This document shows, in pieces, positions 14,304 through 47,083 of a stretch of 64,000 nt of DNA. The notes under the pieces were generated by a model. The model saw nothing but the letters and a program-made list of their open reading frames with translations. It was not told the DNA's origin and searched no databases. Every line of letters begins with the position of its first letter. The first letter of the stretch is position 1. Source of the DNA: a virus (lineage: Duplodnaviria; Caudoviricetes); IMG/VR virus record IMGVR_UViG_3300010357_001370, positions 10,927-74,926 of that record, one strand, 5' to 3'. A program made the translations under genes and the position numbers.

Positions 14304-14341
14304 ATGTACAATATAAAAGGCGGTCTTTCGACCGCCTTACT

Positions 14342-15898: not shown

Positions 15899-15947
15899 AA
15901 ATCACTCCTATTTCCGTTGTGGATCCGTATCTAGTTAGTGAGAATCG

Positions 15948-16256: not shown

Positions 16257-16262
16257 GCGTAA

Positions 16263-16637: not shown

Positions 16638-16640
16638 ATG

Positions 16641-18299
16641 TTATCGTACCCTTTCCTTCGACGGCTCAGCCGTACTGTAACTGATAATATACTCACGAGT
16701 GTAATTGGGATACAGCTTTCCATCTTCCTTCTTTGAAATAAGGGAATTACCGGACGAGCCCTTAATCTCTAGCAGTCTGTTTGTGAAGGTGGTAGCAAGG
16801 CTAGGAGCAATACCGGCCCCGGCTGCAGCCATCGCCGGTTCAGCAAGAGCACCGGTAGTGGTGCTGTTTTCAAATAAACCGTTTACAAAGTTGACAAACA
16901 TATCCTTAACAGCTTCTGTAGTTTTACCAAATCGATATGTCTTAGCCTCAGCTACCTGGGTAGGCGGAGTCGTTGACGTTCTTGGAAGATCCACTACCTT
17001 GTGTTGCTGATCTCCGACGGAGACGATCGCGGGTGCAGGACGAACCGGTACGGCACGTTCTGATTCGGGAAAGGTAGCGTCCTTATGGACGACCTCCTCT
17101 ACAACCACTGGCTCCTCTACGGGAGCGATTGCAGCAGGAACTAAAACGGGTTGAGCAACTGGCTGCTCAATATGCGGAGGTACTGGTTTCCGGATTGGAA
17201 CCGAGCCTACAGTAGTTCGTTCATCTGGAACAATAGTCGTCGGCTTCTTTTTCTCTTCTGCAGGTGCCGGCGTTGGGGGAACCTTATCACTAGAGAGAAC
17301 GTTCTTTACGTCCATCTTCCAATCCATCCAACGCTGAGCTACTCGTCCTGCAAAGGATAGTCTACGAACTGCCATTTCCTTTCTCTTCTTACCCTGAGCA
17401 ACTGCGAGAAGCTCCTCGGCCTTATGCTGAGACATTTCATCCAGGAAGTGCTTTAGGTGCTTCTGATCAATAGGAATAGATGGTGATGAAGAGATAATGC
17501 CGACCTCTATGAGAACAGAGATCACTAAGAGTAGCCCCAGCATTAGGGAGCTTTCAGTTAAGCTTGGAATCAACCAAACGAGACCGGACGCCATCAGCTT
17601 AAACATACTGACTGACGTAGTCTGTGCTGCTGCAGATTCTGCTGCCTGAATTCGAAGCTCAGCTTCGTGAGCTTGCTCATTAGTTAGCTGAGCTTGAAGA
17701 GTAACAGACTGTGCCTGAATCTTAGCAATAGAATCAGAAAGAGACTTAGCAGCGGTTGTGAAATCCGGCGGTAGAGTCTTAAGGCGATCTGTATTTGTTT
17801 GAATCAACGTGGCGTACGAGTCTAACGTAGCCTGATAGCTCTTCTGAGCCTTTTGGCTAGCTTCAATCTGAATTGCTACGGCAGAAACACTCTGAGCTTC
17901 AATTCCTCGATTGATTACCGTTAGAGTGAAGCCGTAAGAGGCCATGATAGACACGAGAGCGAGTACAGTGTACAGAGAATATGCACGAACAGCCTGAGAC
18001 TTGAGCTTAAGTCGCCAGAGCGTGTTGCCTCGGACGATTGAGAAAATCTTAAAGAACTCAAACGTGATGGCGACTGCTACTAGAACAGTCTGCTCTAGCG
18101 GCTGAGATGAAAGGCGGTAAAACATGTTCACGGATAGTAGAATAGATACTACCGAGAAGCCGATAAATGCCAGGTACTTAAAAGCGACAAAGAGGGTCGA
18201 AACTGAGAAGAATCGACTCACCAGGTCTCTTAAGCCTAACAATATAGAAGAAATGGTGACTTTTTGCGTGCTCGGCACGCTGGTGTCTGTTGTGGACAT
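16641..18299 (-). CDS. Multi-pass membrane protein with a coiled coil and Pro-rich linker
   Basis: Three to five hydrophobic helices flank a heptad region; PV/PA-rich tail. Confidence 0.6.
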   Translation of the reverse strand: MSTTDTSVPSTQKVTISSILLGLRDLVSRFFSVSTLFVAFKYLAFIGFSVVSILLSVNMFYRLSSQPLEQTVLVAVAITFEFFKIFSIVRGNTLWRLKLKSQAVRAYSLYTVLALVSIMASYGFTLTVINRGIEAQSVSAVAIQIEASQKAQKSYQATLDSYATLIQTNTDRLKTLPPDFTTAAKSLSDSIAKIQAQSVTLQAQLTNEQAHEAELRIQAAESAAAQTTSVSMFKLMASGLVWLIPSLTESSLMLGLLLVISVLIEVGIISSSPSIPIDQKHLKHFLDEMSQHKAEELLAVAQGKKRKEMAVRRLSFAGRVAQRWMDWKMDVKNVLSSDKVPPTPAPAEEKKKPTTIVPDERTTVGSVPIRKPVPPHIEQPVAQPVLVPAAIAPVEEPVVVEEVVHKDATFPESERAVPVRPAPAIVSVGDQQHKVVDLPRTSTTPPTQVAEAKTYRFGKTTEAVKDMFVNFVNGLFENSTTTGALAEPAMAAAGAGIAPSLATTFTNRLLEIKGSSGNSLISKKEDGKLYPNYTREYIISYSTAEPSKERVR

Positions 18300-32669: not shown

Positions 32670-33086
32670 ATGACGTCTGCTGAGCATACCAAGTTTCGTT
32701 CTACTAAGATTTGGAAAGAGTTTCGAAAAAGTATTATACAAACCCGAGGAGCAATTTGTGAATGCTGTGGAACAAGGTATTCCGGAAAGAGAACCAAGCA
32801 GCTTCAAATACATCATAAAGATCCGGTCAATTATACAGATTTGAACCCTGAGAAGTTCGTTATTTTAGATTCCAGTTGCCATGATCTTATTGAAAGAATG
32901 TCCACTAAATTAAAGGGTTCGCGGTCAGGGGATATCCCCCACTTGGAGAATTGGATTAGACTTCTCTATACTTTTCTACCGTATGAAACTCAAAGGATAG
33001 TGGTTGAGAAATATGATGATTATCTATCAAGCAAGATGCCTGACGAGTGGAAAGATTTATGTAGGACAAACGAAAACGAGCCTTGA
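32670..33086 (+). CDS. HNH endonuclease-like protein
   Basis: CECCG...LQIHHKDP...CHDLIE. Confidence 0.7.
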   Translation: MTSAEHTKFRSTKIWKEFRKSIIQTRGAICECCGTRYSGKRTKQLQIHHKDPVNYTDLNPEKFVILDSSCHDLIERMSTKLKGSRSGDIPHLENWIRLLYTFLPYETQRIVVEKYDDYLSSKMPDEWKDLCRTNENEP

Positions 33087-33804
33087 AGAACGTAGGTGCA
33101 GGCACGAATATAATGCATTTTCAAAGAATATGCAAACCTACTTTTATAGAGCGTTAAGAAAGTATGGAAAAGATGATTTCGAATGGTCTATAATTTATGA
33201 GGCAAGCGAATTAGAGGATTTAGATGTACTCGAAATTCAATTTATAGAGAGTCTAAATACGCTTGTACCTAATGGATATAATCTTACGAAGGGCGGCGAC
33301 GGTGGAGACACTTTTTCTAGACTTTCTTCTGAAGAACAAGATCAAAAACGAAGGAAAATGAGTTTAGCTAGTACAGGACGTCGCGCTATTACTACGTTAG
33401 GTAGACAAAGATTAAGAGAGAATATGTTAAAAAATAATCCGATGAAGAGAGAAGAGGTTCGAAGAAAGGTAAGTGAACATCATGCTGATGTATCTGGAGA
33501 AAATAATCCCATGTATGGAAAAACACATACGGATGAAGTAAAAAAGAAGCTTTCGATTTTAGCAACCGGAAGAGTACCATCAGATGATGTTCGAGCGCTT
33601 TGGTCTCGACAACGCTCAGGAGCAGGTAATCCAAAAGCACATCCAATTCGATGTGTAGAGACGGGAGAAGTATTTTCTCACATCAAAGAAGCTCTTTCGA
33701 GGTATGGGCAAATTAGTATTTCAAGAGCAATACGAGAAAAGAAAACTGCTGGTGGTTATCACTGGGAGAGAATCACAAAAGAAGAATACGAGAGTATACT
33801 ATAA
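33013..33804 (+). CDS. GIY-YIG homing endonuclease with NUMOD3 repeats
   Basis: IYQARCLTSGKIYVGQT, NGYNLTKGGDGG, NPMYGKTHTDEVKKKLS and IRCVETGEVF. Confidence 0.88.
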   Translation: MMIIYQARCLTSGKIYVGQTKTSLEERRCRHEYNAFSKNMQTYFYRALRKYGKDDFEWSIIYEASELEDLDVLEIQFIESLNTLVPNGYNLTKGGDGGDTFSRLSSEEQDQKRRKMSLASTGRRAITTLGRQRLRENMLKNNPMKREEVRRKVSEHHADVSGENNPMYGKTHTDEVKKKLSILATGRVPSDDVRALWSRQRSGAGNPKAHPIRCVETGEVFSHIKEALSRYGQISISRAIREKKTAGGYHWERITKEEYESIL

Positions 33805-34071: not shown

Positions 34072-36408
34072 ATGGATTCAACACGACTGCGCGAAGGCGT
34101 AACTACATATCTAAGCTCTGCCTTTCCTCAATCTCAGATAGCGCGACAAGGCTTTATGGGTCGTCTATCGTCTCTTTGGGGATGGAGAGCTAGCTCTGCT
34201 CAAGATTCTCAGACAAAGTTATCAAAGAAGGCCGGCGTTCAGTTTGTTCGTGTTGATCCGAACAATAAGTCAATGCGGGAGCTTGATGCCAAACTAGGAG
34301 CGCTTTTCCAGAACGTTCCTCTTTCCGACCGACTTGAAAAGCTCTTCGAAGCATGGCTTCGCGATAGTACGAATGGATACGATGATCTTCGAGATCGTCA
34401 GAAGCGTATTAACGAGCTCAACTTCATGTACTATAATGATCCGTTTATTAGCCGCGTCGTTCAGCTTGTAGCTGATGAAGCCACGCAGCTCGATGTTCAG
34501 GATCGTCTCCTTTCCGTAGAGAGCCCTGACCCGCGAATGGCTGAGCGAATCTATCAGCTCCTCGATATGTGGGGCATCAATCAGCAGCGCATCCATGGCA
34601 TGTGCTTCGATTTGGAGCTTTGCGGTGAAGGTTTCTGGGCTAATAAGATTACAGCGAACGGCGTTGAGAAGATCATTCCTCTTCAGGTAGGGCAGATCCT
34701 CGAACGCCTTGAGTTCAATCCTACAAAGGTAGCTGAGGAGATCAGAGCACGCCAGGGATCGATCATGACAATGATCAATCGCGATGCTAAGCTCCAGATG
34801 CTCTTACAGTCCTTCGAAGAGCTGCAGGTCACAGAAAACTTCGCAGAGATGTTCGAGACAAAGCTTTTTGGTTACGTTATCGATAACGAAACAGTTGTCC
34901 CGCCGTGGACGGTTACGCACTTCCGTCTAAATGCCGATCACTCAGAATTTTATCCATATGGACGCCCGCACCTCCTAGCAGCCCTAGCACCATTCAAGCA
35001 AGCTGCTTCGACAATGACGCTCCAGTCTCTTGCACGTATCCTCTCCTTCCCCGTAACGCTCTATAAGGTTAAGACGGCACAGGGAATGGATACTGCAATG
35101 GTCTGGGACCACGTCAACAGCGTTCGAGAGCAGTATGACAACATCGGTGTTAATCCCGTTGCCGGTCAGTCTGAGGTCTACTCAGTTAACACCAAGATTT
35201 GGATTCCAGATGGTCTACTCGAAGTAGATGTCAAGGAGTCTAAGGCCGATATCGACTTCGTAGGCGACCTCGAAATGTACATCGATCGTATCTGTATCGC
35301 GTCTGGTGTACCGAAAGGTTATCTCGTCCAGGAGTGGGGCGGGTTTGGTGCTAGCGCAGTTTCCTTAACTGAGCAGTTCAAGCCGTTCGCTCGCCACGTC
35401 TATACCATTCAGGCTTCCTTCCTCGAAGGTCTAGCTGATTTGATTCGCCTACACTTCGTTATTACTGGTGAGTTTGATTACACTACACCGTTTACACTCT
35501 CTATGCGCTTCCCGGCCGAAGAAATGTCCGAAGATAAGCGCAATGCTCGTCAAGGATCTATAGATCTCGCTAAAGATGTCATGGAGCTTATCGGTACTGC
35601 AATGGGTGTAAGTGATGAAGAGCCTCTACCGCCAGATGTCGTTAAGGATATCATGGCCAAATACACCTTCCTTGATCCTACTGACGTCCTTAAGTGGACA
35701 AAGCAAGTAGGTGATCAGGTTCTTATTGCTAAGTCCCGCAGCGGGGACGACGACGAAGAAGGCGGAGGTGGTTCTTCCAGCGGAGGCGGCTCCAGTGGCG
35801 GCGGCGGAGGCCTCGATGAGCTAGAAGATATGCTCGGCACCGAAGGTGGCGAGGATATCGGCGGAGGCGATGAAGGTGGTGGGGAAACTACAGAAGAGAG
35901 TATGCGCCGTTCCCGCCGATTCGCCTTGAACAGAATTCGAGAAGCTCGCTTTAAGGAACTTCGAATGCGCTACCGGGAAGTAAAGGATGATCTATACTTT
36001 AAGATACTCCGACAGAACAATATTACAGAGTTTACGCGTAACAAGCGCCACGTTATGCTAGCTAAAAATATTCATTATTCTCAGGAACCGATGTTTGAGA
36101 CGCTGAATGCTTGGAGAGAGTATCAGAAGACGGGCAAGGGTCCTGCTAAGATGAAGACACTTCACGAAACGCTAGTAGCTATGAAATTAGAAGATGCTAC
36201 GCCGAACGCCGGAGATATGAAGTTTGAAAATATCAAGGCAGACATGTCCAAGGAGCGCGCACATCTCGAAGAAGACGTTCCGGGCCCGAGGAATGAGAGT
36301 TGGACCGAACATCTAACAGAAGATCTCAGCGACGGGTTTAATGACGTTGAGTCTCAGGAGGCCGCAGTAGATGATAGCGGGGATTTAGTACAAGAAGGGG
36401 ATAGATAA
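34072..36408 (+). CDS. Portal protein, T4 gp20-like, with a Gly/acidic linker and C-terminal extension
   Basis: ELNFMYYNDPFISRVVQLVADEA, HFR, YGRPHL, FKQ, ASGVPK and QFKPFARHVYTIQ; head-module context. Confidence 0.8.
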   Translation: MDSTRLREGVTTYLSSAFPQSQIARQGFMGRLSSLWGWRASSAQDSQTKLSKKAGVQFVRVDPNNKSMRELDAKLGALFQNVPLSDRLEKLFEAWLRDSTNGYDDLRDRQKRINELNFMYYNDPFISRVVQLVADEATQLDVQDRLLSVESPDPRMAERIYQLLDMWGINQQRIHGMCFDLELCGEGFWANKITANGVEKIIPLQVGQILERLEFNPTKVAEEIRARQGSIMTMINRDAKLQMLLQSFEELQVTENFAEMFETKLFGYVIDNETVVPPWTVTHFRLNADHSEFYPYGRPHLLAALAPFKQAASTMTLQSLARILSFPVTLYKVKTAQGMDTAMVWDHVNSVREQYDNIGVNPVAGQSEVYSVNTKIWIPDGLLEVDVKESKADIDFVGDLEMYIDRICIASGVPKGYLVQEWGGFGASAVSLTEQFKPFARHVYTIQASFLEGLADLIRLHFVITGEFDYTTPFTLSMRFPAEEMSEDKRNARQGSIDLAKDVMELIGTAMGVSDEEPLPPDVVKDIMAKYTFLDPTDVLKWTKQVGDQVLIAKSRSGDDDEEGGGGSSSGGGSSGGGGGLDELEDMLGTEGGEDIGGGDEGGGETTEESMRRSRRFALNRIREARFKELRMRYREVKDDLYFKILRQNNITEFTRNKRHVMLAKNIHYSQEPMFETLNAWREYQKTGKGPAKMKTLHETLVAMKLEDATPNAGDMKFENIKADMSKERAHLEEDVPGPRNESWTEHLTEDLSDGFNDVESQEAAVDDSGDLVQEGDR

Positions 36409-37745
36409 TGGCTATTTCAACTGCTATTCAGACCAGCGGCGCAACTATACAATTTGGAACAGTCAGCGGTTCCGCATTTACTGCTGGTAATATTAGAATT
36501 AAGGGATCAGCTACCGTAGACGGTCAGCTAGATATCAATTCTTCTGCTGCACTCGCTGTGACTGCTTCCGTACTGGCCGTCACAGCTTCTGGAGCGGTAG
36601 GCATCACATCCTCTAAGCCTATTCAAGCAGCGTCGTCCGCGGTGATTGGTGGCTCCGGCGGAGTTCTCCCCGCTACGTCCGGATCGCTTTCTGCAGGAGG
36701 TGGACTCCTCGTTAAAGATGAGACATCTGGTAAGAATTGGTTCCTCCACGTACACGCAGATCGTATTAGGTTGTTCGACGGGGTATCGACAGAGCTAGTC
36801 TTTACCACTCCGGCTGATTCCATAGCCCAGGCTACCAATGCTCTCGCCTGCTCAGGTAACGCCGCAACCGCTACTCTTGCTGCAGCAGCTACAAAACTTG
36901 CAACAGCTCGAACGATTGGTGGGGTCAGCTTTGATGGGACAGCAAACATCAATCTCCCTGGCGTTAACACATCCGGTAATCAGAATACCTCAGGAAATGC
37001 CGCTACTGCGACACTAGCTGCTACAGCTACTACAGCAACAAATGCTCTTGCATGTTCCGGTAATGCCGCTACTGCGACACTAGCTGCTACAGCTACTACA
37101 GCAACAAATGCTCTTGCATGTTCCGGTAATGCCGCTACTGCGACACTAGCTGCTACAGCTACGATTAGCTACAATAATAGATCAGCAGCTAACTACCAGA
37201 TCTTATTTGGCTCCGGTGTCGGGCTATATGCTTCAGACCTTGTAACAATGAATCCCAGCACAGGAACAATCACAACTACAAATATTAGCGGAGCAGGCCG
37301 AGGAGGAATAATTTCCGGCTTCAGTAAAGTCTATAATGCTGTTTGGAATGATTATGCCGACTATATTTCTCTTGAAGGGCCAATTCCAATAATTCCAGGC
37401 CGGGTCTATTCGTACAACGGGCACTTTCATCAGATAGCCTCGTCGTATGCTGAGATGGGAGTAATCGGTATCTGTTCCGATACTTTCAGCTTTGTTGCAG
37501 GTCATAAAGAAGATGAATTCCAAGTACCAATTGCAGTCTGCGGATTCGTCTTAGCTTACGTTGATAAAGTCTATCCGTCAGGGACTCCACTCACGTCAGC
37601 CACCGACGGTGGGCTAACCGAGATGACTCTAGAAACCAAAATGAAGTTCCCGGAGCGTTTGCTAGCTACTTTTTATAAAGAAGAGAGAAGCACCGCTTGG
37701 TACGGAATAGAGGTTAATGGACGGCACTGGGTTCAAGTTCGCTAA
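36408..37745 (+). CDS. Fibre/tail-appendage-like protein with GNAATAT repeats and a probable C-terminal chaperone/autocleavage domain
   Basis: GNAATAT and ARTIGGVSFDGTANINLPGVN are common tail-fibre motifs; VYNAVWNDYADY...GICSDT...IAVCG is typical of phage fibre C-termini. Confidence 0.7.
   Translation: MAISTAIQTSGATIQFGTVSGSAFTAGNIRIKGSATVDGQLDINSSAALAVTASVLAVTASGAVGITSSKPIQAASSAVIGGSGGVLPATSGSLSAGGGLLVKDETSGKNWFLHVHADRIRLFDGVSTELVFTTPADSIAQATNALACSGNAATATLAAAATKLATARTIGGVSFDGTANINLPGVNTSGNQNTSGNAATATLAATATTATNALACSGNAATATLAATATTATNALACSGNAATATLAATATISYNNRSAANYQILFGSGVGLYASDLVTMNPSTGTITTTNISGAGRGGIISGFSKVYNAVWNDYADYISLEGPIPIIPGRVYSYNGHFHQIASSYAEMGVIGICSDTFSFVAGHKEDEFQVPIAVCGFVLAYVDKVYPSGTPLTSATDGGLTEMTLETKMKFPERLLATFYKEERSTAWYGIEVNGRHWVQVR
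36996..37162 (+). repeat. Exact 66-bp tandem repeat, about 2.5 copies, in frame in the fibre gene
   Basis: Copies start at 36996, 37062 and 37128 and encode NAATATLAATATTATNALACSG. Confidence 0.9.
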
Positions 37746-37782: not shown

Positions 37783-38025
37783 ATGGACCTGCGACACAAT
37801 ATTACTATATGCACTCGATGCAAGAAGCCCCTAACAGGCTTGAAGTACTACATCTCGTTAAAGATGGACGCACTAAAAGAAAAGGAAAGCGGGGCTTGGG
37901 AAACAATACCCACTCTCGACCTAACTACAAATGAGGTGGTTTGTGACACTTGCTTTGAAACATTCTCGCAAGCCATAATTGCAGGTATGTCGCAGGAGAA
38001 GGCCGATGAGTCTTCAGCGTCCTGA
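37783..38025 (+). CDS. Small Zn-finger-like protein
   Basis: CTRC...CDTC; RBS AAGGAG; coupled to the radical SAM gene. Confidence 0.6.
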   Translation: MDLRHNITICTRCKKPLTGLKYYISLKMDALKEKESGAWETIPTLDLTTNEVVCDTCFETFSQAIIAGMSQEKADESSAS

Positions 38026-39175
38026 GGAACTGGGGATAACTCAGTTCGAACTTGTAGTAACCGAAAACTGCAATTCGAAGTGTACATACTGCTTCGATAA
38101 CTATTTCGCCGGACAGCGCATTAACACAAAGGATCCTACTCGTTGGATGCAACCGGAGCTTATTCCAGACCTGATCAAGTTTATGGATAAGACCTGCGCT
38201 GATCCAAAGCAGGAAAAGCGTCTCAACATTCACTATATCGGCGGCGAACCTCTCATGAATTTTGAATTTATGAAAGCAAGTGTCCCGGCATTCAGAGAGC
38301 ACTTTGGCCCACGCGTAACGTTTTCTATCAACACAAATATCCTACTCATCACAGATGAGATTCTAGAGATGTTTGTAAAGTACAACTTCAATATCACGAC
38401 ATCTATCGATGGAGGCCGAGAGTCCCATAACGCTCACCGAGGAAACTGGGAGAAGGTAATTGAGAACCTGATACGTATCAAAGCAGCTTTTCTTGATGCT
38501 AAGGGTCCGGGAGCCGATGTAGCTGCCATCGGAGCAGTGTTTGTTGTTAGTGCCGATCGATCCGATTATGTCGTCGAGGATTATAGAACTCTTTCCAAGT
38601 TCTGCAATTGTCGTATTAACCTTAATGCCGAGGATCCGCTCTGGACCGACCAAAAGGTAGACGATGTCTGCAACGCAATTCGTACAATCGCCGCTACTAC
38701 ACCAGATTTCTTTTCAGGAGATCTCGTCGGTGGATTTGAGCCTAAGTATTGGACAGCAATAGAGGGCAATGGAAGTCCATTCTTCTGTCACACGCCGATA
38801 CATAATGTAACAATCAATCCGATGGGTAAGCTATTTTTCTGCCACAGACTTACTCCAAAGTCCTATGAATTTACTCCAGAGTTTTCGGAATTCTATGGTG
38901 ATATTTACCAGGGATATTATAACACCGACTACTACACCAGCATGATAGAATGTCGTGTTGGGGGATCTAACATGTTCGAGGATTGTAAAACATGTAAATA
39001 CGTTAATATGTGTCGGCAGAATTGCCGTGCAGTACACATTGCTAACGGCGGTAAAGTTAATAAAATCATGTGTAAGTATATTCAAACGTACTTCGATCTT
39101 CTAGAACAACACTACGGTCGGGCACTAAATAGGAAGCCTAATAGAGGAGATCTCAATGCCAACCTGTGCACCTAA
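38006..39175 (+). CDS. Radical SAM/SPASM maturase 1
   Basis: CNSKCTYC, IGGEPL, INTN, SIDG and SPASM CH...CKTCKYVNMCRQNC; ATG 38006 has RBS AGGAG. Confidence 0.9.
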   Translation: MSLQRPEELGITQFELVVTENCNSKCTYCFDNYFAGQRINTKDPTRWMQPELIPDLIKFMDKTCADPKQEKRLNIHYIGGEPLMNFEFMKASVPAFREHFGPRVTFSINTNILLITDEILEMFVKYNFNITTSIDGGRESHNAHRGNWEKVIENLIRIKAAFLDAKGPGADVAAIGAVFVVSADRSDYVVEDYRTLSKFCNCRINLNAEDPLWTDQKVDDVCNAIRTIAATTPDFFSGDLVGGFEPKYWTAIEGNGSPFFCHTPIHNVTINPMGKLFFCHRLTPKSYEFTPEFSEFYGDIYQGYYNTDYYTSMIECRVGGSNMFEDCKTCKYVNMCRQNCRAVHIANGGKVNKIMCKYIQTYFDLLEQHYGRALNRKPNRGDLNANLCT

Positions 39176-40106
39176 CTATTTAAACGTCGGATATAAGGAA
39201 TATTTTAACGCCACCGGAGCAAATTGTCAGCAGTACACAAATGGTGGCGGAAACGCTTGTGTTCAATATTGCCCTGCGAACGCAACTACCTACAACAGAT
39301 ACGGAAATGCTTATACTCCAGCCTGTACAGAGGCTCGCTGCGCTCAATCATATATAAACGCCTTTGACGATTGCGCGCAGTACTACAACTATTCAAACTA
39401 TCTGAATTATACGCGAAACGTTTCTGGAGCCGGAGCGTATTCTCTTGGACTTAATACTACACTTATCGATAGTGTTACGACTGTAGACGCTACTGCTATC
39501 AGCGCAATTAAGCATATGCGAGATAAGCTAGTAGAGCTCGTTAACAATAAGCCCCAGCAATCTACAGTTCCTGAAACCGGGCTTACTGCAGTCTCTGATG
39601 CTACTTTTGACGACGGCAACCCGTCGACGATAGAGAAAACTGCCGCAGCCCAGTACAATGCTCTTCAATCTAAGTTTGCCGCTCTCCGGAATGCCATCAA
39701 TACCGGGGTAGCCGTTAGTTCAACTCAAGTCGCACCCGGGGATACTCTTACTAAGAACCACCTAACAGCTTTGAAAACAGATCTAACAAACTTAGCGGCT
39801 GCCTGTTATCAGACATACGCTAATCAGCAAGTAGGTGCAGGGTACGCTAACGCCAACAGTGCATATACTCGCGCTGTTTATGGCGCTTCGGTTGCGTACA
39901 CAAATGCATACTGCGCAGAGTATATCTGTACCAACACGGGCTCCGGCTGCGGGCAATACAATTACTCGGATTATTCCAATTGTACGAATACATTGAGTTG
40001 CGGCAACTGCCGAAATTCGGGTCACTATAACTATAGTAATTACTCGAATCATGCAAATCATTCAAATCATTCGAATTATTCAAATGTTTGCAGAAGAGAT
40101 TACTAA
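39156..40106 (+). CDS. Cys/Tyr/Asn-rich protein 1, candidate radical SAM substrate
   Basis: 19 (Y/H)-x-N triads and about 15 Cys in the terminal regions, around a helical core. Confidence 0.75.
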   Translation: MPTCAPNYLNVGYKEYFNATGANCQQYTNGGGNACVQYCPANATTYNRYGNAYTPACTEARCAQSYINAFDDCAQYYNYSNYLNYTRNVSGAGAYSLGLNTTLIDSVTTVDATAISAIKHMRDKLVELVNNKPQQSTVPETGLTAVSDATFDDGNPSTIEKTAAAQYNALQSKFAALRNAINTGVAVSSTQVAPGDTLTKNHLTALKTDLTNLAAACYQTYANQQVGAGYANANSAYTRAVYGASVAYTNAYCAEYICTNTGSGCGQYNYSDYSNCTNTLSCGNCRNSGHYNYSNYSNHANHSNHSNYSNVCRRDY

Positions 40107-40120
40107 AGAGGTAGTGAGAT

Positions 40121-41116
40121 ATGCCATCCTGTGCACCAAACTATGCTAACGTAGGCTACAAAGAATACTTTAATGCCGCGGCTCCGGGAGTACAATACTC
40201 GAATTATGCAAATCTGTGTATACAGACATACTGTGCAGACTCTCGTGTAGCCTACTACGGTAACACAGGAGCTGGTGGCGGAGGTATATGTAACCAAGGT
40301 GTATGCTATCAAACCTGTACGAACTTCAATCAGTACGGTACCACGTACCCAGCAAATAAAGATGACTGCTCTCAGTATTCTAATTATAGTAACTGTACAA
40401 ATTATGCCCGAAACGGTGGCGGAGCGGGCACAGTTCTTCCTGCACTCAGCCTCGATCAGTCTGTCATTGATGGAATAACAGACATACCAACGTCAATTAC
40501 AGCTGTAACCCATCTTCGAGATAAGTTAGCAACCTTAATTAGCCTTAAGCTAAGACAGGACACGGTCGACGACGCGATGCCTTCGACGATCAGCGATGCT
40601 ACGTTTAATGATAGTAACTCAGCTACTGCTGAAATAACTCTAGCTACTCAGTATAATGCTCTGAAAACTAAAATGGACGCTTTTTGGAATGCATTAAAGG
40701 CTGGAGGAACTACTCTCACTACTCCTAGCTCGGATGCGGTAAAATCTTCTGGAGATACCCTTTTTAAGAATAGTATACTGGCTCTTAAAACGGATCTGGT
40801 GACTATAGCAAATGCATGCTCGCAGACATACGCTAACTATCAGAATGGTTACGCAGCTGTTCTTGCTGATACCTATACGAATAGCGTCGCTACATATACT
40901 AGAACGACAGTGTATAGAGATGCGTTCTGTAGCCAGTTAGTTTGCACAAACACAGGTGGCGGTTGCGGCCAGTACAATTATTCGAATTATAATAATTGTA
41001 CAAATACTGTCTGGCACAACCGATACATGAATACTCAGGATTGTTGGAATTACGCTAATCACAGTAACCATTCGAACCATTCAAATTATCGCGATACCTG
41101 TAGACGAGATAACTAA
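40121..41116 (+). CDS. Cys/Tyr/Asn-rich protein 2, paralogue of protein 1
   Basis: Shared MP(T/S)CAPNYxNVGYKEYFNA start, HxRDKL, SDATF, QYNAL, ALKTDL and HSNHSN...CRRD end. Confidence 0.75.
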   Translation: MPSCAPNYANVGYKEYFNAAAPGVQYSNYANLCIQTYCADSRVAYYGNTGAGGGGICNQGVCYQTCTNFNQYGTTYPANKDDCSQYSNYSNCTNYARNGGGAGTVLPALSLDQSVIDGITDIPTSITAVTHLRDKLATLISLKLRQDTVDDAMPSTISDATFNDSNSATAEITLATQYNALKTKMDAFWNALKAGGTTLTTPSSDAVKSSGDTLFKNSILALKTDLVTIANACSQTYANYQNGYAAVLADTYTNSVATYTRTTVYRDAFCSQLVCTNTGGGCGQYNYSNYNNCTNTVWHNRYMNTQDCWNYANHSNHSNHSNYRDTCRRDN

Positions 41117-41132
41117 CTAAGAGGAGAATAGC

Positions 41133-41831
41133 ATGACTTGTGAACTACAGTGGGATATTAAAGCTCAGGCTTTTAAGGGTATAGCCCAATTTACATATGC
41201 AGAGGACCCATCTAATCTTCCATTTGACGAACACGGATTCTACTATGGCGTTAAGTATGGATTTGATGGAGTAGTTACCGAGCGGTATTACGCTCTTCAA
41301 CCCGGGGATATCTTCGTGAACGAGGATGCAGAAGATCCGGACCGTATCACTACCTTTAAGAGTATCACTAGGCGTACAGTGACTCCTACCGATTTCTACA
41401 TATCCTATAGGTCCCGACCCTTTACTTATCTAGATAATCATCCAGAGATTCAGGTGGATAGCAGGCTTCTCGCTGCAGCAAACGGTCTCGGAATTCGGTA
41501 TAACGCAGAATCGAAGGAAACTCTCGTATACTATGTACATGCTGTAGATCCTCGATGTCGGATGTTGATTGAGGGAACAGACGATGCGGCTTATCTGCGA
41601 GAAGATGCGGATTTCTTAAAGTTTACTCAAGAGCAAGCCGCTGCATTAACAGAATTCAAGTCTGCCGCAGGCGTTTCGTTCCACGGATTTGGAATAACCC
41701 ATCTTGCAGAGATTATTATTGTTCCAGGTATTTATCGATATGTAGCTTTTTGGAACAACGATATTCTAAAGGATTATCTTAATTTCTGGGAGGGAGAGTA
41801 TGCACTTCCTGGTCAGATTTTCAACGTGTAA
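41133..41831 (+). CDS. Hypothetical protein within the radical SAM cluster
   Basis: 232 aa, RBS GAGGAG; ACTAACTA upstream at 41112-41119. Confidence 0.6.
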   Translation: MTCELQWDIKAQAFKGIAQFTYAEDPSNLPFDEHGFYYGVKYGFDGVVTERYYALQPGDIFVNEDAEDPDRITTFKSITRRTVTPTDFYISYRSRPFTYLDNHPEIQVDSRLLAAANGLGIRYNAESKETLVYYVHAVDPRCRMLIEGTDDAAYLREDADFLKFTQEQAAALTEFKSAAGVSFHGFGITHLAEIIIVPGIYRYVAFWNNDILKDYLNFWEGEYALPGQIFNV

Positions 41832-41840
41832 GGAGTCGAA

Positions 41841-43202
41841 ATGTTCCAGTTTAATAATCAACTCGTCTTAAAGGTAACGAAGGGTTGCAATCTTCGTTGT
41901 GAGTACTGCTATGTAATGAATAAGGACCTTCATGAAGGTCAGTTTATAGATTTTGAGCTCTATAAAAAAATTATTGATGCTGTTGTTCTAGATAGACTTA
42001 AGTCTACTCAAGGTAAGAATGAAGACTTTAATTTAACCTTTCATGGTGGCGAGCCTACCACTATTAACAAAACTAGATTTTTCCAGATGTGTGAGTATGC
42101 CCGGGATAAGTTTTTCAAAGCCGGGCTTCATTTGTCGCTATCTATTCAAACAAACCTCACCCTCATCGATGAGGAGTGGTGCCAGCTTTTTAACCGCTTT
42201 AATGTAGCTGTCGGAGCTAGTTGGGACGGAACTGGACCGGCTAACGAAGCTCGTACAGACAAGTCTGAAGACTTCTATCATGAGAAGACTCAGATGTTTA
42301 AGAAGTATAATGTTCAGCACGGGTTTCTACTCGTAGTAAATCGGCATAGTGTAGACTATATCCCAGAGTCGCTAGAGATCCTAAAAAACAAATTCCATAA
42401 AAACCAAGGTCGACTCAACTACGTAGAGGATGTGATTACTCCCTTTGGGCAACCGAGTAGTATAGAAGTACCTGGAAAGGAATTTTTTGAAAAGGTGACA
42501 AAAGCCCAGGTAGATCAGTTCATCGCTACCGGCCAGTGTTTTGATGGTAATATTACAAATAGCATAGAAAAGTTTATGATTGACTACCTGACGAATGTAG
42601 GTAGCTTGTACCCGGAAAACGGTAACTGCTACGTCAAGTATTGCGGCTCTGGAATCAACGTATTGGAAATGGACCCTGACGGTTCCGTTCTCTTTTGCGG
42701 CCGATACGGGGATGCTTATGAAGATGCCATTCTCATGCACGGGCTTGATGAAGACTTTCTCTCTATGAAGCAAATACTAAAACATCTAGAGTTTCAGAAA
42801 GCTAAGATTGCAGCAATGAAGCGATCTCATTGCGACGACTGCAAAGCTCAGAATATTTGTGACCACGGTTGCATGGCATATCACTATACGAAGCCGCAGG
42901 CGGACGGAACCCACAAGTGGGGTATTCGAAATGATCTAACGTGCGCTATGTTTAAGCCTCTATATGATTATATGTTTGAGCATGCTAACGATATTTTTGA
43001 GTCATATTTTAAGAACGACGTCGTCCCAGCCGGACAGACTCAACTTAGCCTACCAAAGTCTTCTAATTTCTATCCAGAGCTAAGTGTTTCTAAGATTCAA
43101 GATAGACTCCAGAAGTACGGGATAACAGTCGAAATTCGGGATTCGCGAATTATATTTAATGCACAGCGCCAGGGGTCATATGACCATACGGCTCATTGTT
43201 AG
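41841..43202 (+). CDS. Radical SAM/SPASM maturase 2
   Basis: CNLRCEYC, FHGGEP, QTN, SWDG and SPASM CYVKYCG...C...CDDCKAQNICDHGC. Confidence 0.92.
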   Translation: MFQFNNQLVLKVTKGCNLRCEYCYVMNKDLHEGQFIDFELYKKIIDAVVLDRLKSTQGKNEDFNLTFHGGEPTTINKTRFFQMCEYARDKFFKAGLHLSLSIQTNLTLIDEEWCQLFNRFNVAVGASWDGTGPANEARTDKSEDFYHEKTQMFKKYNVQHGFLLVVNRHSVDYIPESLEILKNKFHKNQGRLNYVEDVITPFGQPSSIEVPGKEFFEKVTKAQVDQFIATGQCFDGNITNSIEKFMIDYLTNVGSLYPENGNCYVKYCGSGINVLEMDPDGSVLFCGRYGDAYEDAILMHGLDEDFLSMKQILKHLEFQKAKIAAMKRSHCDDCKAQNICDHGCMAYHYTKPQADGTHKWGIRNDLTCAMFKPLYDYMFEHANDIFESYFKNDVVPAGQTQLSLPKSSNFYPELSVSKIQDRLQKYGITVEIRDSRIIFNAQRQGSYDHTAHC

Positions 43203-43210
43203 GAGACTCA

Positions 43211-44233
43211 ATGTCGAACGTCATTCTTACTCATGCATGCAATAAAGGTTGTTCATACTGCTTTGCTCGTGAAACTCGCGACTCTCACGTAACTGTTGGA
43301 GCATGTGCAGACGATGTGCATATGTCAATGGAGATGTTTTCATCTATCCTTGACAAGCACGTAGCCAATCTGCCTCCGGGTCGAGCAGGTCAGGTTAAGC
43401 TTCTCGGTGGTGAGCCAACTCAGCATCCTAAATTCGACGAGATCCTTGCGCTCTGCTATGAGAGGAATATTGAAGTAACTCTGATCTCTAATTTTCTCTT
43501 CTCTAAGGAGAAGCGAGATATTATTCTAAAGTATCTTGAAGCGCGCCCCATGCATTTTCTTATCAACTCTACGGAGCTTGATCAGAAGAACCGTATGGAG
43601 ATCTTCAAGGAAAACTATAATGAGATATATAAGTTTCTATATGCACGAAATGCTGAAGACAATATGTCGTGCGGGCTGACGCTTGATCAGGATGTAGGAA
43701 TTGAATATTACATAAACTATATTGATTACTTGAAGGATAACCTCATCGCAATTGAGCATATGCGAGTAAGCTTATCCTTCCCTGGCGATACGGATAAGAA
43801 GAATCAGTTTTTCTTTATTAACAATACTAAGCTTGGCGATAGCTTGGTGTTCATTACAAAGAAGCTTCTAGATGCTAATATCCCAGCTAACCTCGATTGT
43901 ATTAACTTCCCGTGTATGTACGAGTCTAAAGAAGAGTCTAAGTTTGTAAAGAAATTCTTAGCTGGATCAGATAAGTATATCTGCGGAACCGGTCCCGGCC
44001 CTACGGACTATATGCCCGACGGAACAGCCATCTATTGCTATCCAAATGCTAACACCGTAGTAGACGCTACTAGACTAAAGTCCGATACCGCAGTTCAGGA
44101 ATCTCTTCGTATGAAATACCAGATTGCTAGAGCTACTCTAGTACTACCCGATGCCTGTCAGGAATGTAATGCTAGAAAGGCTGGGCAGTGCGACGGCCCC
44201 TGCTTAGGTTTCTTTAGTTATGATAAGATCTGA
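43211..44233 (+). CDS. Radical SAM protein 3 with SPASM-like Cys
   Basis: CNKGCSYC, LLGGEPTQHP and C-terminal CQECNARKAGQCDGPC; ATG 43211 has RBS AGGAG. Confidence 0.88.
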   Translation: MSNVILTHACNKGCSYCFARETRDSHVTVGACADDVHMSMEMFSSILDKHVANLPPGRAGQVKLLGGEPTQHPKFDEILALCYERNIEVTLISNFLFSKEKRDIILKYLEARPMHFLINSTELDQKNRMEIFKENYNEIYKFLYARNAEDNMSCGLTLDQDVGIEYYINYIDYLKDNLIAIEHMRVSLSFPGDTDKKNQFFFINNTKLGDSLVFITKKLLDANIPANLDCINFPCMYESKEESKFVKKFLAGSDKYICGTGPGPTDYMPDGTAIYCYPNANTVVDATRLKSDTAVQESLRMKYQIARATLVLPDACQECNARKAGQCDGPCLGFFSYDKI

Positions 44234-45341
44234 TGTTAATTTAACATATGTTACACTTCTGGTTACAGAGAACTGCAATCAGAAGTGTACGTACTGTTAT
44301 GATAACTTTTTTGCAGGCGAGCGTGTTAACAGTGATAAGCCAGATGCCTGGCTATCTGTAGATATGCTTCCGAGTATTGTATCTTTTGTAGACAGCCACA
44401 GAGACAAATCTAAACCTATCCGATTTCATTATATCGGTGGCGAACCTCTTTTGAATTTCGAATTTGTCAAAACCAGCGCTAAGCAGCTGTTCTTACATTA
44501 CGGTCCGTCTACAAAATTCTATATCAATACTAATCTTACTATCCTAACAGACGAGATGATTGATACTTTTGTAAAGTACCACTTTACAGTTACCACGTCG
44601 ATAGATGGTCGTAGAGAGGCTCACAATAGGTATAGAGCAAATTGGGATCTCGTAATTCAAAATCTGATCCGACTAACAACGCGGTATATAGAAGCTTTCG
44701 GGCCTGATCATAATAGTATCCGGTCTAACTGCGTAGTTAGCGCTGCTAACGTGTCGACTCTATTAGAAGATTTTTTAGCAATCAATCGTTTTTGTCCATT
44801 ACAGCATCTAGACTTCAATGCAGAGGACCCGGACTGGACTCCAAACAAGCTAGAGGAATTAAAGAGAGTTATTCAAACTATTGCAAGGTTAGTCCCGAGC
44901 TTCTTAAACGAGAACGGGGTGTATCAATCCGCAGTTAAGGCTCAAACAGATTCTAAGTATTGCTGTAACCCTCATAGAACAGTAACAATAGGTCCCAGGG
45001 GTCGTCTTTACTTTTGCCACCGCCTCGTTCCTAAGTCCTATGTATTCACTCCCGGTTTCACAGAGTACTACGGAGATATATATGCCGACTACTCTAATAC
45101 AGAGTATTTCGAACGAATGGATACGTACGAGAAAAATATAGGTCCCGAGTGTGCCGCTTGTAAATATCTTAAGTACTGCAAAGGTGGCTGCAGAGCCTTA
45201 GATTGTAGTCCGAATCCGTTACCGAAAGGTATTGGGGTTCACCCAGATTGTACGTACCAGGGTATCATCTACGACATATACGAAGAACTTAATAGTAAGT
45301 CTCTTAGTTCAGAATCCTTACCGTCTTCACCGGCGCCATAG
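44220..45341 (+). CDS. Radical SAM/SPASM maturase 4, paralogue of maturase 1
   Basis: VTENCNQKCTYCYDNFFAG versus VTENCNSKCTYCFDNYFAG; CAACKYLKYCKGGC. Confidence 0.9.
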   Translation: MIRSDVNLTYVTLLVTENCNQKCTYCYDNFFAGERVNSDKPDAWLSVDMLPSIVSFVDSHRDKSKPIRFHYIGGEPLLNFEFVKTSAKQLFLHYGPSTKFYINTNLTILTDEMIDTFVKYHFTVTTSIDGRREAHNRYRANWDLVIQNLIRLTTRYIEAFGPDHNSIRSNCVVSAANVSTLLEDFLAINRFCPLQHLDFNAEDPDWTPNKLEELKRVIQTIARLVPSFLNENGVYQSAVKAQTDSKYCCNPHRTVTIGPRGRLYFCHRLVPKSYVFTPGFTEYYGDIYADYSNTEYFERMDTYEKNIGPECAACKYLKYCKGGCRALDCSPNPLPKGIGVHPDCTYQGIIYDIYEELNSKSLSSESLPSSPAP

Positions 45342-46165
45342 CAGAATTTGCAACCTGCTGTAAATTCTCTATTCCAGATTTGATGAGCTATATCGCGAGT
45401 GCGTTCTGTACCTAGCATTTCAAGCACCGGGGTACTGAACGCATTCCCTATGTAAGTGCCATCTTCGCGTAGCGGCTGGCATACACAAAGCGAAACTTCT
45501 CCGGTAGTTAAGACAGATACTTGAAACGGGGAACAGTGTTCGAGTTTTGGAACAGTAGACCAATCCCGGATTGCGGGGTCTTGTAGAGACGGAAGACCTA
45601 GTCTTTCAAGGTAGTTCTCAAAGTCATATTCCGGGTCGATCAGCCATTTCATAAAGCCTTCAGAGTAGACATCGATAGTTGTACCAGACTGCATTTCCGG
45701 TACAACAGCAGGACCCATATTAGGATGATAGACGCGCTTAGCCTGCACCTGTGTTGGAGCGATAGCTTGGAGACGTCTATAGTTTTCGAGAGTAAGGTCA
45801 AGAAGAGACTGAGGGATTGCATAATCGCTAAAGTCAACCGCTACGTATTGAATTTTAGTTAGCGTGCGGAGGTTTTCATCTGTCAATTCTGTAGCTAAGT
45901 TAGTTGCGATATAGATGAGGTGAAACCCTGCCGTGGCGAGACGATCTACAATCTCAAAGAAGTTCGGATTCATTAAAGACTCGCCTGCGGGAATAAAGAA
46001 GATACCTAGTCGATCCTTATCGTGTTGATTCAGAACAATAAAGCGTTCGATATCGGGAACGGTCATTATGTGGGTACCGTGCTGAGCTACTCCGGGGATA
46101 ATGCAGCAATGCGGACATCTCTTTTGACAGATACCATATACGGCGTGAAGGTTTATATTGATCAT
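45269..46165 (-). CDS. Radical SAM protein 5 (SPASM/twitch-type C-terminus)
   Basis: CQKRCPHC, GESLMNP, ATN and CVC...CKFC. Confidence 0.8.
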   Translation of the reverse strand: MININLHAVYGICQKRCPHCCIIPGVAQHGTHIMTVPDIERFIVLNQHDKDRLGIFFIPAGESLMNPNFFEIVDRLATAGFHLIYIATNLATELTDENLRTLTKIQYVAVDFSDYAIPQSLLDLTLENYRRLQAIAPTQVQAKRVYHPNMGPAVVPEMQSGTTIDVYSEGFMKWLIDPEYDFENYLERLGLPSLQDPAIRDWSTVPKLEHCSPFQVSVLTTGEVSLCVCQPLREDGTYIGNAFSTPVLEMLGTERTRDIAHQIWNREFTAGCKFCYGAGEDGKDSELRDLLLSSSYMS

Positions 46166-47083
46166 TTATGCCTCTACGAGATTACGAAGTAGCTCTTGAA
46201 ACGTCGGATCATCCTCACGTCCACAGCCTTTGCAACCTTTACAGGGAGCGAGCTTCCGGTTGTAGACGACGTCGTATGCGCGCTTAGACTGTTCAGTTTT
46301 GAAGAGATCGAACAGCGGAGTAGTGAATGCGTTCCCTGCATTAAGCTCCTCATGTCCCAGCGGCATCAGTCCGCAGTACGCTACCATTCCGGTCGGGAGA
46401 ACTACCACTTGGCTCGGAATACAAGTAGCGTCAGTTACATCGGTGCTGGTAAATATCATCTCTCGATTATTTACTATCGTAGGGTCGCTCGGATGAATAT
46501 CGATCTGTTTGAGGTAGCGAAAATAATCGAACTTCGGCATTATATATTTGACCATGTCCCGAGAGAATATCTCCACCGGTTCCGGTTGTAAGTTTATGCG
46601 GGAAGCTATGCGATCAGGAAGGACATACGAGTCTCTCGGATGGTACACCTTCTTTAGATGCACGTTGCTATTCTTAGCGATTCCTACTAAACGCTCCCAG
46701 TTGCTCGCTACTAGATCAGATTGCCATCGGGGAACCCGATATGAGCTAATATCTACTGCGATGTCTTTAATTTTACTAAGAGTTTGGAGCTGTTCGTCGG
46801 TGAGATTAAGTGCAAGGTTAGTCGACATATGAAGGAGATTGAAGCCCGCTTCGTCTAGTGCATCTATAATTTTGAAGATATCCTTATTGATGAGAGGCTC
46901 TCCCATAGGAATTATGAGAATGAGAAACTTATCAGCGTGAGCTTTGTTCAGTCGAATGAATGCCTCAATATCGGATAGCGTAATGTACTGAGGCTCTGCA
47001 TATTCTCGCATGTATGGGATAACACAGTGACAGCAAGGACGCTGGCATGCTCCGTATGTTAGATACAGATTAACTCGAATCAT
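46166..47083 (-). CDS. Radical SAM protein 6, paralogue of protein 5
   Basis: CQRPCCHC, GEPLINKD, STN and YCG...CKGC. Confidence 0.8.
   Translation of the reverse strand: MIRVNLYLTYGACQRPCCHCVIPYMREYAEPQYITLSDIEAFIRLNKAHADKFLILIIPMGEPLINKDIFKIIDALDEAGFNLLHMSTNLALNLTDEQLQTLSKIKDIAVDISSYRVPRWQSDLVASNWERLVGIAKNSNVHLKKVYHPRDSYVLPDRIASRINLQPEPVEIFSRDMVKYIMPKFDYFRYLKQIDIHPSDPTIVNNREMIFTSTDVTDATCIPSQVVVLPTGMVAYCGLMPLGHEELNAGNAFTTPLFDLFKTEQSKRAYDVVYNRKLAPCKGCKGCGREDDPTFQELLRNLVEA

Follow-up and report, generated by a model that had tools for sequence, protein, structure and literature searches.

We report here a cluster of six genes for radical S-adenosylmethionine (radical SAM, rSAM) enzymes, arranged around two genes for Cys/Tyr/Asn-rich proteins, S1 and S2, in an uncultured virus which, by its gene content, is a divergent T4-like phage. 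The window, i.e. the whole stretch of 64,000 nucleotides under analysis, comprises bases 10927-74926 of the 74,926-bp IMG/VR viral contig IMGVR_UViG_3300010357_001370. The original prediction, made from the letters of the window, was that the phage uses these enzymes to modify its own late, probably virion, proteins. The observation is real, and chance cannot explain the cluster. It is quite probable, in our view, that S1 and S2 are rSAM substrates. For the further-reaching proposal, that both are whole-protein substrates of a phage-encoded multi-enzyme rSAM maturation system working by the full mechanism set out below, the balance tips only just in favour.

The genes follow each other in the predicted order (portal, fibre, zinc finger, rSAM1, S1 and S2, a 232-aa protein, rSAM2 to rSAM4, and then rSAM5 and rSAM6 in the convergent direction), and the gene coordinates agree. 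The features and their positions in the window are:

34072..36408, plus strand: probable portal protein, 778 aa (context, outside the module; Portal_T4 matches)
36408..37745, plus strand: tail-fibre-like protein, 445 aa (context; PHROG tail-fibre families)
37783..38025, plus strand: zinc-ribbon protein (CxxC...CxxC), 80 aa, module accessory with 4 invariant Cys
38006..39175, plus strand: rSAM1, type A radical SAM/SPASM enzyme, 389 aa (CxxxCxxC; Radical_SAM 51 bits, SPASM 31.1 bits)
39156..40106, plus strand: S1, putative substrate, 316 aa, with Cys/Tyr/Asn-rich arms, paralogue of S2
40121..41116, plus strand: S2, putative substrate, 331 aa, with Cys/Tyr/Asn-rich arms, paralogue of S1
41133..41831, plus strand: acidic 232-aa protein, specific to the close clade, matching no family
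41841..43202, plus strand: rSAM2, type B radical SAM/SPASM enzyme, 453 aa (SPASM 42.9 bits, anSME-like)
43211..44233, plus strand: rSAM3, type C radical SAM enzyme, 340 aa (CxxxCxxC; 8 invariant C-terminal Cys)
44220..45341, plus strand: rSAM4, type A paralogue of rSAM1, 373 aa (SPASM 41.2 bits)
45269..46165, minus strand: rSAM5, type D HxsC-like radical SAM enzyme, 298 aa (CxxxCxxC; PF04055 24 bits)
46166..47083, minus strand: rSAM6, type D paralogue of rSAM5, 305 aa (PF04055 29.5 bits)

The junctions are as tight as predicted. The zinc-ribbon and rSAM1 genes overlap by 20 nt, as do the rSAM1 and S1 genes, and rSAM3 overlaps rSAM4 by 14 nt; the remaining same-strand gaps in the cluster measure 8-16 nt, and rSAM5 and rSAM6 abut. 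rSAM4 and rSAM5 converge, sharing 73 nt at their 3' ends (45269-45341). Shine-Dalgarno sequences are present 5' of the genes for the zinc-ribbon, S1, S2, the 232-aa protein and rSAM2. The true start of rSAM1 is likely the ATG at 38006, which gives 389 aa as in the orthologues, and rSAM3 probably starts with the ATG at 43211. According to pairwise and iterative sequence comparisons, the six enzymes fall into four types, namely A (rSAM1 and rSAM4, 43% identical), B (rSAM2), C (rSAM3) and D (rSAM5 and rSAM6, 38% identical).

The strongest evidence for the S proteins as substrates is, on comparison of loci, their synteny with the enzymes. We compared the window with a close clade (L001-L011) and with the divergent loci L013, L014/L034, L015/16, L031, L032, L033 and L035. 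A core consisting of a type A enzyme, a substrate gene, a zinc-ribbon, a type B enzyme and mostly a type C enzyme recurs in about ten divergent phage lineages, often with an HxsC-like enzyme in front of it. Enzymes of the divergent loci are 25-45% identical to those of the window; orthologues of rSAM2 (33-39% identity) were found in every divergent locus and those of rSAM3 (40-44%) in L013-L015. The genes for the type A and type B enzymes enclose the substrate gene in every lineage, with tight spacing or overlaps. A synteny survey had been proposed together with the original prediction, and in it the Cys/Tyr/Asn-rich gene turned out to be the one gene that stays with the enzymes across the approximately ten lineages. 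In the window, the zinc-ribbon is displaced to 5' of rSAM1, and the clade-specific 232-aa gene occupies its former place.

Within the close clade, the number of substrate genes varies together with that of the enzymes. Contigs with two substrate genes (the window, L001/2 and L005) carry rSAM4 to rSAM6; in contigs with one substrate gene (L003/4 and L007-11), rSAM3 is followed by unrelated genes and rSAM4 to rSAM6 are missing at that position. The single-copy substrate is nearer to S2 (59% and 53% identity) than to S1 (44% and 45%), the values for the L003 copy being 59% vs 44%, and the single type A enzyme is the orthologue of rSAM1, not of rSAM4. Moreover, the divergence between the two S proteins (46% identity) is similar to that between rSAM1 and rSAM4 (43%). 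We infer from these sequences that a substrate-enzyme pair was duplicated together, giving rise to S1 and rSAM4; the lineages are few, and a single event is possible.

S1 and S2 are paralogues and, in line with the original prediction, rich in Cys, Tyr and Asn (15 Cys, 32 Tyr and 40 Asn in S1; 15, 27 and 37, respectively, in S2). They match no Pfam, NCBIfam, PHROG or PADLOC family, and a profile of the S family found nothing significant among PDB sequences. A word-indexed search of 5.8 billion proteins revealed nine close relatives, all of them metagenomic, and a profile search of 1.8 billion representatives revealed 33 matches, to which a further search added few more. Judged by these searches, the S family is rare and confined to metagenomes, with about 50 representatives. 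No relative was found by tblastn with S1 and a distant family member against 50,697 phage records, and a search for related loci with one alignment (A1) returned 0 viral contigs. The leads obtained by looking up S1 in the Atlas all scored below 0.9; one was a mostly viral cluster with the Pfam annotation 'rSAM target Cxxx repeat'.

Members of the S family have 200-370 aa and start with M-(A/P)-Y-(S/N)-E-Y-F-N, the extreme N-terminus (M-A/P-Y-S-E-Y-F-N) being among the most conserved segments. An N-terminal arm with a variable count of units of approximately 10 residues, C-x-T-S-(H/Y)-x-(N/D)-x-x-(N/D)-x-C, is followed by a conserved helical core and by a C-terminal tail with further (Y/H)-x-N triads; in some members the core contains insertions of the size of a folded domain. 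In S1, the N-arm comprises residues 1-95, the core approximately 96-228 and the C-arm 229-316. An AlphaFold2 model of S2 based on 44 sequences predicts a helical bundle for the core (residues 103-233; predicted local distance difference test, pLDDT, 80-94) and disorder for both arms (1-101 and 235-331; pLDDT <50), while an earlier model of S1 from 11 sequences was unusable (pLDDT 35). The S2 model had no Foldseek match in PDB or BFVD at E <= 0.001. With VIA-align, its core resembled generic helical bundles; the best Z, 10.8, was obtained with a designed helical filament and is too low to be meaningful for helical proteins. No signal peptide, transmembrane segment or peptidoglycan-binding domain was found in S1 and S2, whose isoelectric points (5.9-6.6) are close to neutrality and whose repeats are non-basic.

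The sequence features that point to modification are concentrated in the arms. Of the (Tyr/His/Trp/Phe)-x-(Asn/Asp) triads, 20/22 in S1 and 20/23 in S2 are located there, as are 14 of the 15 Cys residues of each protein, so that each arm contains approximately 7-13 triads and 6-8 Cys. The majority of these positions are conserved in 8-9 of the 9 full-length relatives. We compared motif frequencies with composition-preserving shuffles, separately for the close family and for distant members. The triad [YHWF]-x-[ND] is enriched both in the close clade (z = 18) and among distant members (z = 29), and the enrichment is positional because the shuffles keep the composition. Some strings of period 3, such as NYSNCTNYTRNAS and NHSNHSNHSNYSN, can be read either as aromatic-x-Asn triads or as N-x-S/T sequons. 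Triads without a following S/T are still enriched (z = 11 and 22). N-glycosylation sequons were rejected as an explanation: among distant members the z of N-x-[ST] is 1.2, and sequons standing alone occur less often than in the shuffles (z = -1.7 and -4.4). The conserved unit of the S family is thus aromatic-x-Asn/Asp. In addition, Cys residues do not stand at random with respect to Asn/Asp: [ND]-x-C is enriched in distant members (z = 9) and C-x-[ND] in the close clade (z = 7), and the PapB-like spacing C-x3-[ND] is depleted (z = -2.2 and -7.6).

All six enzymes have the CxxxCxxC motif near the N-terminus, as originally described. Our test for membership in the radical SAM superfamily combined this motif with the gathering score of the Pfam model Radical_SAM (PF04055, 29.5 bits). 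rSAM1 to rSAM4 are above this value with 39-51 bits (rSAM1, 51 bits), rSAM6 is at the cut-off (29.5 bits) and rSAM5 is below it (24 bits), though it is 38% identical to rSAM6. The additional claim that SPASM/twitch-type Cys are present in all six enzymes held for three of them. rSAM1, rSAM2 and rSAM4 match the SPASM model TIGR04085 (31.1, 42.9 and 41.2 bits; cut-off 27 bits) and show the corresponding Cys spacing CX2CX5CX3C at residues 336-349, 331-344 and 311-324, respectively. rSAM3, rSAM5 and rSAM6 have no TIGR04085 match at E <= 0.01. Enzymes of the rSAM3 type have eight invariant C-terminal Cys, yet no SPASM match; five C-terminal Cys are present in each of rSAM5 and rSAM6, and rSAM5 shows a faint match to a twitch family (E 0.0087).

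The best families of type A are PapB, CcpM, QhpD and HxsB, all with scores well under the cut-offs. With the model of the PapB family ranthipeptide maturases (NF047865, cut-off 340 bits), which covers the full length of rSAM4, rSAM1 scores 112.9 and rSAM4 113.8 bits, and the score of rSAM1 with HxsB (TIGR03978, cut-off 370 bits) is 78.7 bits. The solved structures nearest to rSAM1 are 8VPO, CteB and anSME. rSAM2 can be aligned over its full length to anSME (TIGR03942; PDB 4K36) with 115 bits (cut-off 349), and no sulfatase-type target was noted in the cluster. Its next families are PapB and then the cyclophane or C-C formers AmcB, DynA, YhhB, XyeB, DarE and GrrM. With the models of triceptide synthases, whose cut-offs are 310-450 bits, it reaches 80.8 (XyeB, TIGR04496), 83.9 (YhhB, NF041707) and 70.9 bits (GrrM/OscB, TIGR04261); ChlB is among its closest relatives of solved structure. 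The matches of rSAM3, rSAM5 and rSAM6 are weak and mixed, with viperin, MoaA, NirJ or AhbD among them, and when rSAM3 orthologues were made into a profile, this could be aligned to SuiB along its length and matched SkfB as well. rSAM5 and rSAM6 are joined to the HxsC-like enzymes of L012, L013, L014 and L031 by iterative search, and rSAM6 has a weak BLAST match to a double HxsC-like protein of L013. PADLOC found nothing in the cluster beyond generic matches of viperin models to rSAM cores.

According to these family and structure matches, the typable enzymes group with peptide- or protein-modifying SPASM/twitch rSAMs (PapB, CcpM, QhpD, anSME, CteB, ChlB, SuiB and SkfB). A grouping with cofactor or base-modification families, which had been named in advance as an outcome that would refute the original prediction, was not observed. 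Because all scores are far below the curated equivalog cut-offs, the rSAM enzymes are, at the level of sequence, new families within the peptide/protein-modifying SPASM/twitch group.

The 80-aa zinc-ribbon, which matches no Pfam, NCBIfam or PADLOC family, was present in every locus examined, and its four Cys (CxxC...CxxC) are invariant across 10 orthologues. In L035, a 375-aa rSAM protein (L035:1692-2819) has a C-terminus matching the zinc-ribbon profile (E 1.2e-17). This natural fusion argues that the zinc-ribbon cooperates with an rSAM enzyme. Homologues of the 232-aa protein were seen in L003 and L007 only, and searches of Pfam, NCBIfam, PHROG, PADLOC and PDB sequences revealed neither a family nor a PDB relative for it.

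The source contig harbours about 11 rSAM genes and a twelfth weak match, i.e. 12 matches in all. A second rSAM cluster lies approximately 30 kb upstream (G000:C1:5691-10210, which equals L012:5691-10210) and encodes an HxsC-like enzyme of 343 aa, a zinc-ribbon of 97 aa, a type B SPASM enzyme of 432 aa and a fused double HxsC-like enzyme of 641 aa. No obvious substrate gene is contained in it, and in L013 the core module has the same set as its direct neighbour. The enzymes of the second cluster score best with HxsC and HxsC4, the double enzyme reaching 153.3 bits with HxsC (TIGR03977, cut-off 267.9) and 172.5 bits with HxsC4 (cut-off 500). When rSAM2 and the double enzyme were compared by tblastn with the 50,697 phage records, all matches were below 35% identity. 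Away from both clusters, a lone 382-aa radical SAM gene (window positions 13155-14303, minus strand) shows weak matches of the MoaA, viperin and NrdG types. Three tandem paralogues of 165-185 aa, which are 30-32% identical, are located at L012:3226-4785 beside a GT2-type glycosyltransferase gene (L012:2343-3251).

Some related enzymes are encoded in other contexts. In L018 (IMGVR_UViG_3300037086_000474, 1-16978), a type C enzyme (7998-8993; 37% identical to rSAM3) sits in an array of about 14 small paralogues of 100-195 aa which start with MK(I/L)R(T/S/Q)GF(V/I)SNSS(S/T)SSF. This array may represent a different rSAM-substrate family; the whole 112-kb record contains no S-family gene and no Tyr/His-x-Asn substrate. 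L036 (IMGVR_UViG_3300002026_002465, 1-9749) carries five rSAM genes, including one of type B, and two zinc-ribbon genes, and no S-family match was found in the whole 178-kb record. A 264-aa Tyr/Asn-rich open reading frame inside this cluster (3345-4139, minus strand) could be a diverged substrate or could reflect mere AT-rich composition. The L031 contig has about 10 rSAM genes in all, some of which flank a gene for a 609-aa protein (L031:14563-16392) with a weak precomputed match to PF27846 (rSAM target, Cxxx repeat). This protein may be a second kind of rSAM target in these phages.

Genes for structural proteins lie near the module. The 778-aa protein has a sub-threshold match to Pfam Portal_T4 (E 0.0014) and nothing significant among PDB sequences, but 29 of its 30 best Atlas matches are Portal_T4 clusters (top score 0.97), and because of the latter we accept it as the probable portal. 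Similarity to PHROG tail-fibre families (E 1.6e-20) marks the 445-aa protein as tail-fibre-like, and in L003, L014, L015 and L033 both its N-terminal part and its C-terminal domain are found again no more than a few kb from the module. In L015/L016, the baseplate genes gp25 and Tail_P2_I are located a few kb downstream of the module. Because the module adjoins portal, fibre and baseplate genes, the S proteins would, judged from gene position alone, most likely be virion-associated components of the neck or tail.

Additional neighbours of the module were seen in the divergent loci. A conserved family of 430-724 aa is encoded directly upstream of it (L013:5509-7683, L014:4182-7998, L015:7109-8911 and L033:3371-4654); it had no PHROG match, and BLAST found no member in the part of the window compared. 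Genes of the 3-deoxy-D-manno-octulosonate (Kdo) pathway, i.e. KdsA-like DAHP_synth_1, KdsB-like CTP_transf_3 and SIS, follow the module at L014:14099-20924, L015:13637-16552 and L033:8066-14379, and the same stretches contain carbamoyltransferase, aminotransferase and additional small SPASM rSAM genes. This suggests that a sugar-modification pathway is encoded beside the module in these three loci.

The assignment of the source virus is based on rIIA (E 2.8e-125) and RNA ligase in the PHROG comparison, and on further T4-like markers (RNA ligase / tail-fibre attachment catalyst, primase, tail-associated lysin and a protein similar to the head maturation protease). CheckV estimates the contig to be 29% complete, and by megablast of the region against the 50,697 phage records no cultured phage was similar at the DNA level. 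A gene for a GIY-YIG homing endonuclease (window positions 33004-33804; PHROG E 9e-42) is located just 5' of the portal gene, and an IS605 OrfB/TnpB-like gene was found near the module in L003 (12180-13457).

Starting from the gene content, family relations and motif enrichment, we propose the following chemistry and pairing of enzymes with motifs. The type B enzyme rSAM2 would link, within a triad, the ring of the aromatic residue to the C-beta of residue three, resulting in three-residue cyclophanes as in triceptides. The type A enzyme rSAM1 (rSAM4 in the case of the duplicated S1) would join Cys sulfur to carbons of Asn/Asp, yielding thioethers of the kind formed by PapB and QhpD. Further modifications could be installed by rSAM3 and by the HxsC-like rSAM5 and rSAM6, and perhaps likewise by the four HxsC-like and type B domains of the second cluster. 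The zinc-ribbon would be a shared accessory which presents the substrate or donates electrons. The product would be a helical handle with two rigid, protease-resistant, multiply stapled arms. Tentatively, and with somewhat less confidence than even, we suggest that this product is a virion component (a neck, fibre or baseplate accessory) with both arms stapled by dozens of cyclophane and thioether rings, and that S2 with rSAM1 and S1 with rSAM4 to rSAM6 are co-duplicated pairs.

Several observations weigh against this proposal. None of the six enzymes reaches the curated cut-off of any characterised maturase family, and the chemistry is thus extrapolated. The T4 late promoter TATAAATA has 0 occurrences in the window, and scans of the window for sigma-70 promoters and terminators remained at background level and gave no timing signal. 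Of the original claim about late, probably virion, proteins, the modification of the phage's own proteins gained support from the enzyme families and the conserved synteny of the substrate, and the late timing did not. The fold of the core, which is similar to generic helical bundles only, does not point to a virion role. The portal adjoins the module only in the close clade (close relative L003), and in a PHROG scan most large neighbours from the divergent loci had no match. One outcome named in advance as refuting was partly seen, since rSAM3-type and rSAM2-type enzymes occur in phage records without the S family (L018 and L036, respectively). Finally, arms so rich in Cys, His and Asn could take up metals or become disulfide-bonded with no enzyme involved.

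These last points lead to the possibility that S1 and S2 are not substrates at all. They would then be metal-binding or disulfide-bonded structural proteins of biased composition, and the rSAMs would act on sugars, nucleotides or cofactors. The occurrence of type B and type C enzymes without the S family would be in line with this, as would the weak and mixed family matches of rSAM3, rSAM5 and rSAM6 and the presence of Kdo-pathway, carbamoyltransferase, aminotransferase and more SPASM rSAM genes beside the module in several relatives. We nevertheless regard such an arrangement as improbable: the substrate gene is tightly set between the type A and B enzymes in every lineage and was apparently duplicated together with a type A enzyme, types A and B match peptide/protein maturases over their full length, and the triad enrichment is not compositional. 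If the S proteins are substrates, their arms could still be multi-core precursors of a classical pathway for peptides that are ribosomally synthesized and then post-translationally modified (RiPPs), which are cross-linked, cut from the leader-like helical core and released as small bioactive peptides. The nearest relatives of the enzymes are indeed RiPP maturases, and members differ in how many units their N-arm has, which is also seen in multi-core precursors. Yet neither the cluster nor any conserved core contains a protease or exporter family, the motifs flank a conserved folded core on both ends, the extreme N-terminus is among the most conserved segments, and the members have 200-370 aa, some with core insertions of the size of folded domains. 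S1 and S2 are thus not short leader-core peptides accompanied by a dedicated protease or exporter, and this explanation is very improbable.

The main rival is a system similar to the bacterial HXS defence, in which S1 and S2 would be matured but would not enter the virion; they would rather act in the infected cell or its envelope, either in superinfection exclusion, by keeping the DNA of competing phages from entering, or in counter-defence. Its appeal lies in the fact that bacterial HXS matures a whole repeat protein, HxsA, by which the entry of phage DNA is stopped (PMC13128918). rSAM1 has HxsB among its top families, HxsC and HxsC4 are at the top for the second cluster, whose lineage rSAM5 and rSAM6 join, and the zinc-ribbon provides a small conserved partner. 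On the other hand, no signal peptide, transmembrane segment or peptidoglycan-binding domain was found in S1 and S2, whose near-neutral isoelectric point and non-basic repeats contrast with the electrostatic DNA binding proposed for HxsA, and the repeat itself is aromatic-x-Asn/Asp rather than His-x-Ser. The scores are far under the HxsB and HxsC cut-offs, the HxsA and HxsD models are unmatched, and the module is accompanied by fibre and baseplate genes. We therefore consider an effector of this kind unlikely, although it has more to recommend it than the two alternatives discussed above.

Cross-linking by radical SAM enzymes is known from small peptide natural products and a few proteins (QhpC, HxsA). 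Here, phages encode a conserved multi-enzyme rSAM version which appears to be aimed at their own proteins of 200-370 residues beside tail and portal genes. If the proposed chemistry is true, it would be a new class of post-translational modification in virus biology, and a candidate reason for the presence of at least 10 rSAM genes in some large phages, a puzzle posed by other phages since 2010. Moreover, enzymes stapling long arrays of Tyr/His-x-Asn and Cys on a folded scaffold would be of interest to peptide and protein engineering. A stapled virion component, if it exists, would be the first enzymatically cross-linked 'RiPP-like' viral structural protein, and its arms could serve as a rigid, protease-proof device for adhesion or penetration.

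In the literature we found no description of rSAM-modified phage structural proteins or of this module. Partial likenesses to described systems exist, and the two closest, HXS defence (PMC13128918) and triceptides (PMC11499958), had been overlooked in the original prediction. Among phages, the T4-like Campylobacter phages CP220 and CPt10 carry 11-12 radical SAM genes with unexplained function (PMC2853527). They resemble the virus described here in being large T4-like phages unusually rich in rSAM genes, and differ from it in that tblastn among the 50,697 phage records revealed no S-family relative, and neither rSAM2 nor the HxsC-like enzymes had a close relative there.

Another group comprises the thioether maturases of the ranthipeptide and sactipeptide type (PapB, CteB and CcpM) and QhpD; PapB and QhpD form Cys thioethers, QhpD acting on a protein subunit, QhpC. 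rSAM1 and rSAM4 are similar to this group in having PapB as the best family (113-114 bits), followed by CcpM and QhpD, and CteB is among the closest structures. The substrates are Cys-rich as well, with Cys next to Asn/Asp. In contrast to the group, the scores are far under the cut-offs of 340-500, spacing of the CX3D type was not seen, and the substrate is much larger.

Triceptides are defined by a motif consisting of an aromatic residue, X2 and X3, with a link from the aromatic residue to a C-beta (PMC11499958). The aromatic-x-Asn/Asp unit of the S family fits this definition, and with 22 triads in S1 and 23 in S2 there are neighbouring putative substrates with motifs of the triceptide type. 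rSAM2 resembles the triceptide synthases (XyeB, YhhB, HaaB, HtkB, GrrM/OscB and ChlB) in having SPASM, and AmcB, YhhB, XyeB and GrrM are among its best families; unlike those enzymes, it scores 70-89 bits against cut-offs of 310-450 and is outscored by anSME. In contrast to the short leader-core peptides of triceptide systems, S1 and S2 have 316-331 aa, a folded core, motifs at both ends and interleaved Cys. The present system also differs in being encoded by a phage, whose contig carries up to about 11 rSAM genes.

The bacterial HXS defence matures a whole protein, HxsA, that contains five His-x-Ser repeats besides a peptidoglycan-binding domain. This is done by HxsB (a SPASM rSAM), HxsC (an rSAM) and the small HxsD, with a shift of +8 Da on an SHRSS motif and processing of the N-terminus (PMC13128918). 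Mature HxsA blocks phage DNA entry from the periplasm, for which electrostatic binding of DNA was proposed (PMC13128918). The phage module differs from HXS in several respects. S1, S2 and the zinc-ribbon match neither the HxsA nor the HxsD model, and the repeat is Tyr/His-x-Asn/Asp instead of His-x-Ser. Further, S1 and S2 lack an export signal, a peptidoglycan-binding domain and basic repeats, and the module is encoded by phages, among structural genes and with extra enzyme types. The small 4-Cys zinc-ribbon is HxsD-like in position, not HxsD by sequence. Nevertheless, both systems combine a whole protein carrying aromatic-x-X repeats with a SPASM rSAM, at least one rSAM lacking SPASM, and a small partner. 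HxsB, HxsC and HxsC4 are among the best families for rSAM1 and the enzymes of the second cluster, and iterative search places rSAM5 and rSAM6 in the HxsC-like lineage. By analogy, HXS offers a precedent: there, a full-length repeat protein is matured by rSAM enzymes with the help of a small partner.

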